The translations under genes and the position numbers were made by a program. A stretch of 64,000 bases of DNA. It comes from Escherichia phage vB_EcoM_PhAPEC2. The stretch is taken from the sequence record NC_024794.1. One strand, written 5' to 3'. The notes beneath the pieces are model-generated. The model was given only the letters and a program-made list of their open reading frames with translations, was not told where the DNA came from and did no database searches. Below, in pieces: positions 61,647 through 64,000 of the stretch (the first letter of the stretch is position 1; every line of letters starts with the position of its first letter).

Positions 61647-61955
61647 TCAATTAGAAAATAAATTTATCCAAGATTTTTCTTTAATCAAAAATGGGTCGGA
61701 ATTAAACGCCATTAAACTTTGAGTGATTAATCCCTTAAATGGCCCATCAATAAATTCCATTTTGAAATGCGGAATACTAGTCATCATCCGTGCATTAGGA
61801 GCAGTACAAAGAACCTGCTGCCCGGCGAACGGACCTTTAGTCAAACGATATCGTTTAGGTTTAAAATGGTAAATCTCGTAATTTTCTACAAGAGCCCTTT
61901 TATTGCATACTGGGCTGTTATAACAATACTCAAAAACTTCAATAGTGGTCATCAT
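61647..61955 (-). CDS. hypothetical protein
   Basis: 102 aa. Confidence 0.5.
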   Translation of the reverse strand: MMTTIEVFEYCYNSPVCNKRALVENYEIYHFKPKRYRLTKGPFAGQQVLCTAPNARMMTSIPHFKMEFIDGPFKGLITQSLMAFNSDPFLIKEKSWINLFSN

Positions 61956-62491
61956 TGCATTCCAATCACAAAAAATTGAGGACGAGCATTACCGCCGATG
62001 CAATATTTGCTTTTGCAGCAGTGCTGTACTGTTTTAATGTGGACATTGTAAATCTTATCCATATCGGGAGCTTTAATAGGCTCGTCAATTATATACAGAA
62101 TACGAGAAAGCGTTAATCCACGGAATTTAGAACCTTCATTGCCAATAAAACTACGAACAGAATCAGTAAATAAACGGAATCGAATATCATCGCTAGAATA
62201 ACGAGAAAATTCTTTTTCAATGTTGCCAGCAGAAATTTTAGCATAAGCTGAAGTATTAGAAAGAACAATAACTGTTCCACCGTCGTGCAGCCAATTAACA
62301 GCAAAATTAGTTACTGCGGTCGATTTACCTGATTGTCTGCCGCCGTCTAAACGAAGTGTACAGTACTGCTTGAGTACGTCTTCAAATGGTGGGACATAAC
62401 CATTCTTACAAATTTCTTCTACTCTAGCATCAGAATGGTGTGTAAAAGCATTCATCAGGGATAGATAAGGTCCGGTTAAAAATGTTCTCAT
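61952..62491 (-). CDS. hypothetical protein with P-loop-like motif
   Basis: 179 aa; GGRQSGKST. Confidence 0.5.
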   Translation of the reverse strand: MRTFLTGPYLSLMNAFTHHSDARVEEICKNGYVPPFEDVLKQYCTLRLDGGRQSGKSTAVTNFAVNWLHDGGTVIVLSNTSAYAKISAGNIEKEFSRYSSDDIRFRLFTDSVRSFIGNEGSKFRGLTLSRILYIIDEPIKAPDMDKIYNVHIKTVQHCCKSKYCIGGNARPQFFVIGMQ

Positions 62492-62670
62492 TTAGTTTCT
62501 CTTTTAGATTGGGGCCATTCCGTGGCGCATGAATTGTCCATTTCTGTATTTACCCATTACCGCACTTGGGCTCGACCTTATTACAGGTTGGCGGGAATCC
62601 CTCATAGAATCATGAGGTCCAGGTTGTTCCCATATTATTTAAATGTAAATAGGTCTAAGTATTAGCTTTA

Positions 62671-63249
62671 TTAATTACCACGGGCCGCATTAGCAACGGC
62701 GTAAGCATACTGAACATTAGCGTCCTTAAACGTACCTTTAGAGGTATCTATTTCTGCCTTAAAGCCGCCTTTAGCCATAACATCGGCAAATTCTTTACGG
62801 AAAGCCATTGCATCAAGACCTTTCCATGATGATTTATGCTTGGCAAATTCAAGACCGGCGTAGTTGACAGCTTTAGCCAATTTATTATCAATGACCCATT
62901 TACCGGCTTTAGGCACAAACTTCGGGCCTTTTTGTTTAGAGAACAGTTTTAAATTCCAGCGACGAAGATCACTATCGGCTTTAACAAAAGCTGCGTCTAA
63001 GTTACTAGCAACAACATCTTCAATATGAGCAAATTTAAGTCCGTCAACTTCAATATTTAGATCGTTACGCCAACGTAGTCCTTCCCAAGCGAAGGCTTTA
63101 AAATCAGAAGCTTTTGTGGCTAGATATCGTTCAAGTGGAGCAGTTTTAGGGTCAAAGCCGTTTCCGCCACGATAATTCCACTCGTCCTTATTAATGCCTT
63201 GAGCTTTTCCTGCAAAGGCCTCGGCGATAAATTCTTTATACGTTTTCAT
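62671..63249 (-). CDS. capsid internal protein (IP-type, capsid-targeting leader)
   Basis: 192 aa; N-terminus MKTYKEFIAEA matches the T4 IP capsid-targeting sequence MKTYQEFIAEA. Confidence 0.6.
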   Translation of the reverse strand: MKTYKEFIAEAFAGKAQGINKDEWNYRGGNGFDPKTAPLERYLATKASDFKAFAWEGLRWRNDLNIEVDGLKFAHIEDVVASNLDAAFVKADSDLRRWNLKLFSKQKGPKFVPKAGKWVIDNKLAKAVNYAGLEFAKHKSSWKGLDAMAFRKEFADVMAKGGFKAEIDTSKGTFKDANVQYAYAVANAARGN

Positions 63250-63312
63250 TTTTGTTTCCTTGTTTGTTTTGATAGAGTAATTATACCATATTAATACTTA
63301 AGCGTAAACAAT

Positions 63313-63429
63313 TTAAGCTTTATCGCCAGAAATAATTCCGAAGTTGTTAAAATCGTATCCAATATCGTCAACATCTACTTTAGGACCTTTGGCATCTGCT
63401 TCAATGATAAATTCTTGATACATTTTCAT
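63313..63429 (-). CDS. micro-ORF with capsid-targeting leader (putative internal peptide)
   Basis: 38 aa not in track: MKMYQEFIIEADAKGPKVDVDDIGYDFNNFGIISGDKA; SD TAAGGA upstream. Confidence 0.45.
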   Translation of the reverse strand: MKMYQEFIIEADAKGPKVDVDDIGYDFNNFGIISGDKA

Positions 63430-63435
63430 TTTTCC

Positions 63436-63849
63436 TTAGTAAATTGATTTACCATAGTATTTGTACCAAGTCGGACGTTGAGCAATTTTTTCATCTAAGC
63501 GTGCTTGACTTATCGCAATGGACGCTTCGGACGGGACATAATTATTACGAAATTCGGCAGGGATGTCGGAAATATCCTGGACTGTCGTGTCCTTGATTTT
63601 GAAACCACGTTTCAAACATTCAGCGATTAGCTCGATTTGTCGTAAACGTAAAAATTCGAGTTTGTCGTAAAAGAATGTTACGTGACCTGTGCCTAAGATA
63701 AATGTTGGAGAGATTTTAAAATCCTTTACACGTTTACCATTTTGAACATGTTTACGGACTGCACCGAATACACGAGGTAATTCGCGATACTCAGCCATAA
63801 GATGTTGGTCGGCCAGTTCAGAAACAAGTGTTAAATTGATACGAGTCAT
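63436..63849 (-). CDS. denV: endonuclease V (pyrimidine-dimer DNA glycosylase)
   Basis: track ORF 63436..63861 (TTG artefact start); [31 protein letters not shown] matches T4 DenV; SD GGAGGA. Confidence 0.9.
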
Positions 63850-63851
63850 AA

Positions 63852-63905
63852 TTTCCTCCAAGTAGTTGATGAATGTATAGTATCAAAACTCTTGGAGGAA
63901 GTAAA
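63852..63905 (-). promoter_or_regulatory. early promoter of denV with anti-SD spacer
   Basis: minus strand GTTTAC, TTCCTCCAAGAGTTTTGA, TACTAT; inverted repeat with leader CTTGGAGGAA. Confidence 0.5.
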
Positions 63906-63906
63906 C

Positions 63907-64000
63907 ACTATTTTTCTGAAGCGCCTGAAATATATTTTTCAAGACGTTGTTTCATTAGCGAGCCGTTCTTAGCGATTTCTTCTGGCTTATCGCACATACG
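63907..64000 (-). CDS. 3' end of a gene whose start lies beyond the window
   Basis: open frame running off the right edge, ending ...ISGASEK then TAG. Confidence 0.35.

Follow-up and report, generated by a model that had tools for sequence, protein, structure and literature searches.

The 38-aa open reading frame (ORF) that follows denV in Escherichia phage vB_EcoM_PhAPEC2 (Mosigvirus) is very likely a decayed allele of a larger gene of the RB69 ORF125c type, headed by a capsid-targeting sequence (CTS), and most likely a functionless by-product of gene loss. The ORF was studied in a stretch of 64,000 nucleotides of sequence record NC_024794.1 (hereafter the window), which takes in some of the internal-protein array that is classically polymorphic among T-even phages (e - ip5-like - denV - ip - ip - vs.8). 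Together with the neighbouring 192-aa ORF, an orthologue of T4 ipIII, it is encoded on the minus strand, and each of the two is led by a T4-type CTS. A degenerate pattern for CTS-coding DNA matched the 64 kb at two sites, exactly the starts of these two ORFs, and gave no match in 100 shuffles, so the leaders are not chance matches. Exact-sequence look-up identified both products as deposited proteins of PhAPEC2, and PDB sequence searches returned no match for either protein. The original prediction, made from the letters of the window, had proposed both ORFs as candidate injected anti-defence effectors. This holds for the 192-aa protein, whose role is established in T4, but a dedicated 38-aa micro-effector is not supported, since the shorter ORF is a deletion derivative of an 86-aa gene. 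The starts that had been read for the two proteins, MKTYKEFIAEA with a T4-type CTS and MKMYQEFIIEA with its own Shine-Dalgarno (SD) sequence directly 3' of denV, were confirmed by the sequence, the coordinates and the match to T4 IPIII. In contrast, the 38-aa ORF had been called unannotated, while its exact sequence is deposited as 'hypothetical protein PhAPEC2_112' (AHV82821.1 / YP_009056704.1) and has a PHROG of its own (phrog_35655, 38 positions, E=1.8e-30).

The origin of the 38-aa ORF is evident from its relatives. In the closest phage genomes the region was matched in at least two pieces with longer spans, and the slot that follows denV in moha, p000v and RB69 is occupied by an 86-aa gene, RB69 ORF125c, labelled 'internal head protein' in RefSeq, the protein sequence of which runs MKMYQEFIIEADAKGPKFKVKAF...ASPKVDVDDIGYDFNNFGIISGGKA. 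Alignment of the window to moha, p000v and Lutter revealed a single missing internal block of 144 bp, i.e. 48 codons corresponding to F18-K65, and the spans of the parent and the window region differ accordingly (305 vs 161). A perfect 8-bp direct repeat, GTCCTAAA, flanks this block in the parent of the moha type, with copies starting at nt 43 and nt 187 of the gene; the window has kept one of them (Table 1). Removal of exactly 144 bp from the moha allele gives the deletion allele of phiEC1, with no further difference. Furthermore, the flanks and retained segments of the window are 99.4% identical over 161 nt to the moha- and phiEC1-type sequences, with the same SD, leader and C-terminal tail. 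In p000v, Lutter and RB69 the first copy of the repeat is imperfect, which points to a moha-like allele as the substrate of the deletion. An in-frame deletion of 144 bp between the GTCCTAAA repeats has removed F18-K65, including the most conserved motif of the family. With leader, SD and frame surviving, the remnant is probably still translated and may be packaged and trimmed to an acidic peptide of 28 residues; such a product would most likely be a functionless by-product of loss in an accessory, use-it-or-lose-it locus.

Set against the RB69 ORF125c family, the 38-aa ORF matches residues 1-17 and 66-86 with few or no differences and occupies the same position directly after denV. It differs in being devoid of residues 18-65, including the core FKV.AF.GDAEDFG..KRNGY, and in carrying G36D at an otherwise invariant glycine. 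The full conserved core by which the 86-87-aa proteins are recognised (FKV.AF.GDAEDFG..KRNGY.F..G.GKEI.T.AKR.EIA) is thus absent from it. The long form is widespread: tblastn found an ORF125c-type gene in about 216 phage records, while the deletion junction was present in 9. In a sample of 60 rows spread over the tblastn matches, 53 (about 88%) looked intact, 4 were frameshift-like and 2 were deleted. The 86-87-aa form is intact in Mosigvirus, in Gaprivervirus VR20 (VR20_119) and in Gelderlandvirus STP4-a and S16, and its mature part shows dN/dS of 0.08-0.19 at dS of about 1-2. As it is intact across genera with low dN/dS, the long form represents the ancestral state and a real gene under constraint. 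The short form was seen only in Mosigvirus sequences that are near-identical to the moha type.

The family, a small one with 11 clusters at 90% identity, includes further, independently broken forms. Out-of-frame tails were found in four members (P0045, P0047, P0049 and P0050), a second, different in-frame deletion in P0044, and in Lutter the gene is split into two coding sequences by expansion of a T-run. A pattern of this kind marks an accessory gene that is dispensable, being maintained by most lineages and lost from others. The original prediction had named absence or frameshifting of the micro-ORF in close relatives as one outcome that would speak against it, and this is largely what was seen, as most relatives carry the 86-aa gene and several have it frameshifted. 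An AlphaFold2 model of the intact parent, built on a 4-sequence alignment, reached a mean pLDDT of 56, too low for fold searching; it hints that all predicted beta-strands lie within the deleted part.

The internal-protein locus of T-even phages has been regarded as hypervariable since 1994, and its proteins are polymorphic. Like Ip5, Ip7 and Ip10, the ORF125c-type gene belongs to a set of small, diverse genes that are alike only in their CTS and behave as exchangeable cassettes around denV, ipII, ipIII and e. Homologues of Ip5 and Ip10 adjoin it in relatives, and it shares phrog_2667 with Ip7. The parent protein without its leader still matches this PHROG (E=6.5e-12), while in pairwise BLASTP with VR20 Ip7 the leader alone aligns, and phrog_2667 may contain both families. 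In the curated annotation of VR20 the neighbours are named ip5, ip10 and ip7, whereas the ORF125c-type gene is left 'hypothetical'. A literature search returned nothing on ORF125c, on Mosigvirus virion proteomics or on the names Ip5, Ip7 and Ip10. We also considered and rejected the micro-ORF as a truncated ipII. The N-termini of T4 IPII and T4 IPIII both read MKTYQEFIAEA, and the 38-aa ORF has the 11-residue leader in common with T4 IPII (9/11 identical) at the same general locus. However, BLASTP aligns residues 1-11 only, no similarity exists past the leader, and T4 IPII belongs to another PHROG (phrog_7857) than the parent (phrog_2667).

Regarding expression, the denV stop codon is followed after 6 nt by the start of the 38-aa ORF. 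No promoter-like site of its own was seen for this ORF, which is probably read from the denV transcript, denV being the upstream neighbour with which it is probably co-transcribed. A putative early-type promoter directly upstream of ipIII is a consensus match only, although a promoter is annotated at the equivalent position in Lutter. No canonical late promoter (TATAAATA) was found within 62300-64000. In T4, two TATAAATA motifs are found a short way upstream of gene e, and transcription from them would run on through the array; the equivalent position in PhAPEC2 lies beyond the end of the window. The choice of start codon differs among annotators (36 vs 38 aa for the short form, 84 vs 86 aa for the long form), and the 36-aa versions annotated in JS09, 172859UKE1 and UGJNEcP1 begin at the second ATG. 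In p000v an ACG replaces the first ATG of the ORF125c-type gene (L002 2072-2074), and the start there must be the second ATG (MYQEF...), while more distant homologues (MKTYQEF..., MKTYEEF...) have the first ATG only.

A number of published results concern the signal that the remnant has retained. No more than the first 10 residues of IPIII are required for entry into the head; within the CTS, residues 4 and 7 are the main determinants of targeting, and residues 8 and 10 those of processing (PMC9026906). CTS fusions also bring foreign proteins into the head (PMC9026906; PMC3012670). All four determinants (Y4, F7, I8 and E10) are kept in the 38-aa ORF. Judging from its leader, the remnant, if translated during prohead assembly, would plausibly enter the head and undergo cleavage after E10. 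The computed product agrees with the 28 residues given in the original prediction; it reads ADAKGPKVDVDDIGYDFNNFGIISGDKA, with a mass of 2.94 kDa (2942 Da) and a pI of 4.1. The intact parent, processed likewise, would yield a product of 76 residues (8.17 kDa). Whether such a peptide stays in the head is uncertain, because small cleavage fragments mostly leave the prohead, while fragments of 2.5 kDa and 3.9 kDa are retained (PMC9026906). The predicted 2.9-kDa peptide resembles these internal peptides of the T4 head, derived from gp22 and gp67 respectively, in being small, acidic and of similar size. They differ in origin, as the T4 peptides are cleaved from essential scaffold or core proteins and not from a CTS-led accessory gene.

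When the 38-mer was searched exhaustively with HMMER against 1.84 billion representatives, the only matches were members of the family and two uncharacterised repeat proteins. The latter, P0064 (589 aa) and P0065 (736 aa), have no Pfam match and contain at least 7 copies of the motif V(G)V(D/N)DTGYDVKFFGATSG, 18 residues long, which is weakly like the tail VDVDDIGYDFNNFGIISG (E ~8e-5 library-wide) and may represent a chance or short-motif resemblance. We judged this weak similarity over 18 residues insufficient for homology to the 38-mer.

The deletion allele was found in at least 9 phage records and in about 55 contigs of public assemblies, and a pattern derived from the window matched 4 IMG/VR contigs. 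Cluster databases require caution in this respect. The 90%-identity cluster with the 84/86-aa protein also contains DenV proteins of 137-143 aa and has a DenV representative, and the cluster of the micro-ORF includes a 424-aa ENA member. These mixtures look like artefacts of clustering, probably caused by gene calls that fuse denV with the ORF next to it, and therefore the sizes of the clusters are no guide to allele counts.

Several observations do not sit easily with a functionless remnant. The deletion preserves the reading frame, and each of the at least 9 genomes with it has an intact ORF. What is retained comprises the leader, the seven residues after it and a C-terminal tail of 21 residues; across six intact homologues from four genera this tail is 62% invariant, compared with 65% for the deleted core. 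Because it is as conserved as the core, the tail was not junk in the parent, and some residual activity of it is possible. In addition, the deletion allele occurs on diverse denV backgrounds and with four downstream cassette sets, namely remnant-ipIII (window), remnant-Ip10-ipIII (phiEC1), remnant-Ip10-IP109 (172859UKE1 and UGJNEcP1) and remnant-Ip10-ipII-denV fragment (JS09 and TU01); thus it is not a one-off recent accident. The remnant alleles sequenced differ by about 4 non-synonymous changes and 1 synonymous change, too few for a dN/dS test, and no expression or virion data were found in the literature for PhAPEC2 or the ORF125c family, remnant or parent.

The distribution of the allele also bears on its history. 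The genomes with the deletion form no clade in 560 nt of upstream flank, and given this together with the four cassette sets, the allele either spread by recombination or arose more than once at the repeat. Both a single origin followed by recombination and recurrent deletion fit these data.

An alternative that we consider unlikely is that loss of the ORF125c-type protein is advantageous, with deletions and frameshifts positively selected and the remnant left as debris. It is possible that hosts sense the injected protein, or that headful packaging rewards the shedding of DNA. The gene has been inactivated independently several times, through two different in-frame deletions and several frameshifts, and the deletion allele sits on diverse backgrounds. 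The C-terminal part of P0009 resembles a different parent type (JK45-like), suggesting recurrence or spread by recombination, and T4 readily drops ipIII and adjacent accessory genes under packaging constraint (PMC9391042). On the other hand, the gene is intact in most genomes and its dN/dS is low, while hot spots such as the 8-bp repeat and the T-run of Lutter can give recurrent loss without selection. We know of no host defence that senses an ORF125c-type protein, which also counts against advantageous loss.

A second alternative, which seems to us decidedly improbable, is that selection maintains the 38-aa ORF as a functional mini internal protein, whose injected 28-residue peptide acts on a host target. 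The in-frame deletion, the preserved SD and CTS determinants, the invariance of the tail and the presence of the allele in many records and contigs on several genetic backgrounds would all be expected of such a protein, and the peptides of 2.5 and 3.9 kDa retained in T4 heads (Table 1 of PMC9026906) provide a precedent. Nevertheless, the ORF derives from a larger gene under purifying selection that is intact in most of the sampled rows and frameshifted in other lineages, and the deletion takes the most conserved motif and, at low confidence, all predicted beta-strands. The substitutions, of kinds that intact genes do not show, point in the same direction. G36D of the window allele falls on parent position 84, a glycine invariant in six intact homologues, and other remnants carry Y4H in a targeting determinant, F30L at an invariant phenylalanine, and D21G. 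These changes fit relaxed constraint, though the numbers are far too small for a firm statement. Finally, most small cleavage fragments leave the prohead, and apart from the weak repeat-motif resemblance the tail was found in no other protein context among the 1.84 billion representatives.

A more specific version of the same idea, to which we would give very little credence, is that the deletion allele represents a natural minimal cargo, in which the tail VDVDDIGYDFNNFGIISGxKA alone binds the host target of the family, as a linear motif or a decoy against a defence protein. If this were true, it would be the smallest known injected phage effector. An artefact of sequencing or assembly in one genome, which the small size of the ORF alone might suggest, is refuted by the identical junction, which recurs in 9 phage records sequenced independently of one another and in many contigs from metagenomes or assemblies. 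Decay of an ORF125c-type gene is therefore the reading that we favour for the 38-aa ORF.

Turning to the second ORF, the 192-aa protein is the intact orthologue of T4 internal protein III. It is identical to T4 IPIII at 176 of 192 positions over the full length (92%, E=4e-133), matches phrog_5341 'internal virion protein' at positions 1-192/192 (E=3.8e-117), and is labelled, as the exact sequence, 'internal head protein' in the annotations of PhAPEC2 (AHV82820.1) and moha. The determinants Y4, F7, I8 and E10 of the CTS are all kept, and the leader differs from that of T4 by Q5K only. The two proteins are also alike in length (192 vs 193 aa), in locus and in having a similarly basic mature part (pI 9.6). 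They differ in gene order, which is e-ipIII-ipII-denV-vs.8 in T4 and e-ip5-like-denV-[remnant]-ipIII-vs.8 here, and in that ipIII of the window stands behind the putative early-type promoter and the leader found ahead of Ip10 in phiEC1.

The role of IPIII in T4 has been studied in some detail. Mutants of T4 without ipIII do not plate on E. coli ECOR17, and plasmid-borne ipIII, even without its CTS, restores plating of the mutants (PMC9391042). It was also demonstrated that inhibition by T4 Ip3 is specific to the GmrSD-type type IV restriction enzyme of ECOR17, and that Ip1 and Ip2 each inhibit another GmrSD variant (PMC12373910). By homology to T4, the 10-residue CTS would direct the 192-aa protein to the prohead core, where it would be cleaved by the gp21 protease, and after injection with the DNA it would inhibit a GmrSD-type type IV restriction enzyme. 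PhAPEC2 IPIII is thus predicted, from T4 Ip3, to be an injected GmrSD inhibitor. The anti-restriction role of ipIII is established knowledge, to which the present analysis adds little.

The upstream part of ipIII bears traces of a further exchange. In one alignment (A4), the region upstream of ipIII in the window and the first ~23 nt of the gene are identical to the region preceding Ip10 in phiEC1, after which the sequence continues into the body of ipIII. The promoter, SD and leader of ipIII (63226-63312, minus strand) are those found before Ip10 in phiEC1 (L005 2600-3030) and p000v. This implies a past recombination joint in the first ~24 nt of the stretch that encodes the CTS of ipIII, at which the Ip10 cassette appears to have been lost. 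As the upstream region of Ip10 joins the body of ipIII, the loss is best described as a crossover in the CTS-coding repeat. CTS-coding sequences and short repeats act as recombination joints in the gain and loss of cassettes; the joint left by the loss of Ip10 and the deletion at the 8-bp repeat show how cassettes of the array are gained and lost. Such exchange agrees with the polymorphic internal-protein locus of Repoila et al. 1994 (EMBO J 13:4181), as cited in PMC12373910 and PMC3012670. In JS09 (L008 3357-3494) and TU01 (L009 3366-3494) a short duplicate 5' fragment of denV, annotated 'endonuclease V', is located between ipII and vs.8. It looks like the scar of a rearrangement that moved denV from the T4 order e-ipIII-ipII-denV-vs.8.

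The position of the array next to e, denV and vs.8 was found in the window on comparison with 10 related loci, and the features discussed are listed in Table 1. A third CTS gene, upstream of denV, had been missed in the original prediction. It is an Ip5-like gene, the visible fragment of which (...KPEEIAKNGSLMKQRLEKYISGASEK) matches moha_59; in relatives the protein has 93 aa and starts with MKTYSEFLSES. It belongs to phrog_3499 'internal head protein', and its homologue in VR20 is annotated ip5. On the other side of ipIII, vs.8 is split into a 33-aa ORF (62504-62605, minus strand) and a 179-aa P-loop ORF (61952-62491, minus strand). The 33-aa ORF (MRDSRQPVIRSSPSAVMGKYRNGQFMRHGMAPI) is the N-terminus of T4 Vs.8 (219 aa) followed by a stop, and the 179-aa ORF restarts at MRTFLTGPYLSL, while the annotation of TU01 places both parts of vs.8 within a single coding sequence of 217 aa. 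The GC-richer spacer after ipIII (62492-62670) was also considered as a tRNA or structured RNA and rejected: it contains no tRNA, gave no Rfam match at E<=1 and had a folding z-score of 0.34. Since it encodes the N-terminal 33 residues of Vs.8, this spacer is a coding remnant and not an RNA element.

Table 1. Features of the internal-protein array in the window (positions counted from the first letter of the 64,000-nucleotide stretch).
Feature	Position	Strand	Basis or remark
ipIII orthologue (internal protein III / Ip3), 192 aa, intact	62671..63249	-	homology and exact annotation
CTS-coding first 10 codons of ipIII (MKTYKEFIAE)	63220..63249	-	CTS pattern match
Putative sigma-70 early-type promoter-like site, TTTACG/17 nt/TATAAT, extended -10 TG	63280..63308	-	consensus scan 10/12; directly upstream of ipIII
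38-aa ORF (PhAPEC2_112), in-frame deletion allele of RB69 ORF125c-type 86-aa gene	63313..63429	-	alignment to moha, p000v, Lutter, RB69
Deletion junction, single remaining GTCCTAAA copy	63379..63386	-	two copies 144 bp apart in moha-type parent
CTS-coding first 10 codons of 38-aa ORF (MKMYQEFIIE)	63400..63429	-	pattern match; predicted gp21 cleavage after E10
Shine-Dalgarno-like AAGGA	63433..63437	-	overlaps denV stop; 3 nt before first ATG, 9 nt before second
denV (endonuclease V)	63436..63849	-	Pfam PF03013 Pyr_excise, E=6.6e-14; denV annotation in all relatives
Ip5-like third CTS gene, 3' end	63908..64000	-	cut off by the window end; rest lies beyond the window

Taken as a whole, the finding reflects the usual turnover of genes in a phage locus long known to be hypervariable and is in line with known biology. 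PhAPEC2, carrying the remnant, and moha, carrying the intact gene, are about 97% identical in this region and form a natural pair of knockout and wild type, which could be used in the search for the target of ORF125c-type proteins. The intact family, still nameless, conserved in four genera and under purifying selection, can reasonably be put forward as one more candidate injected anti-defence protein.

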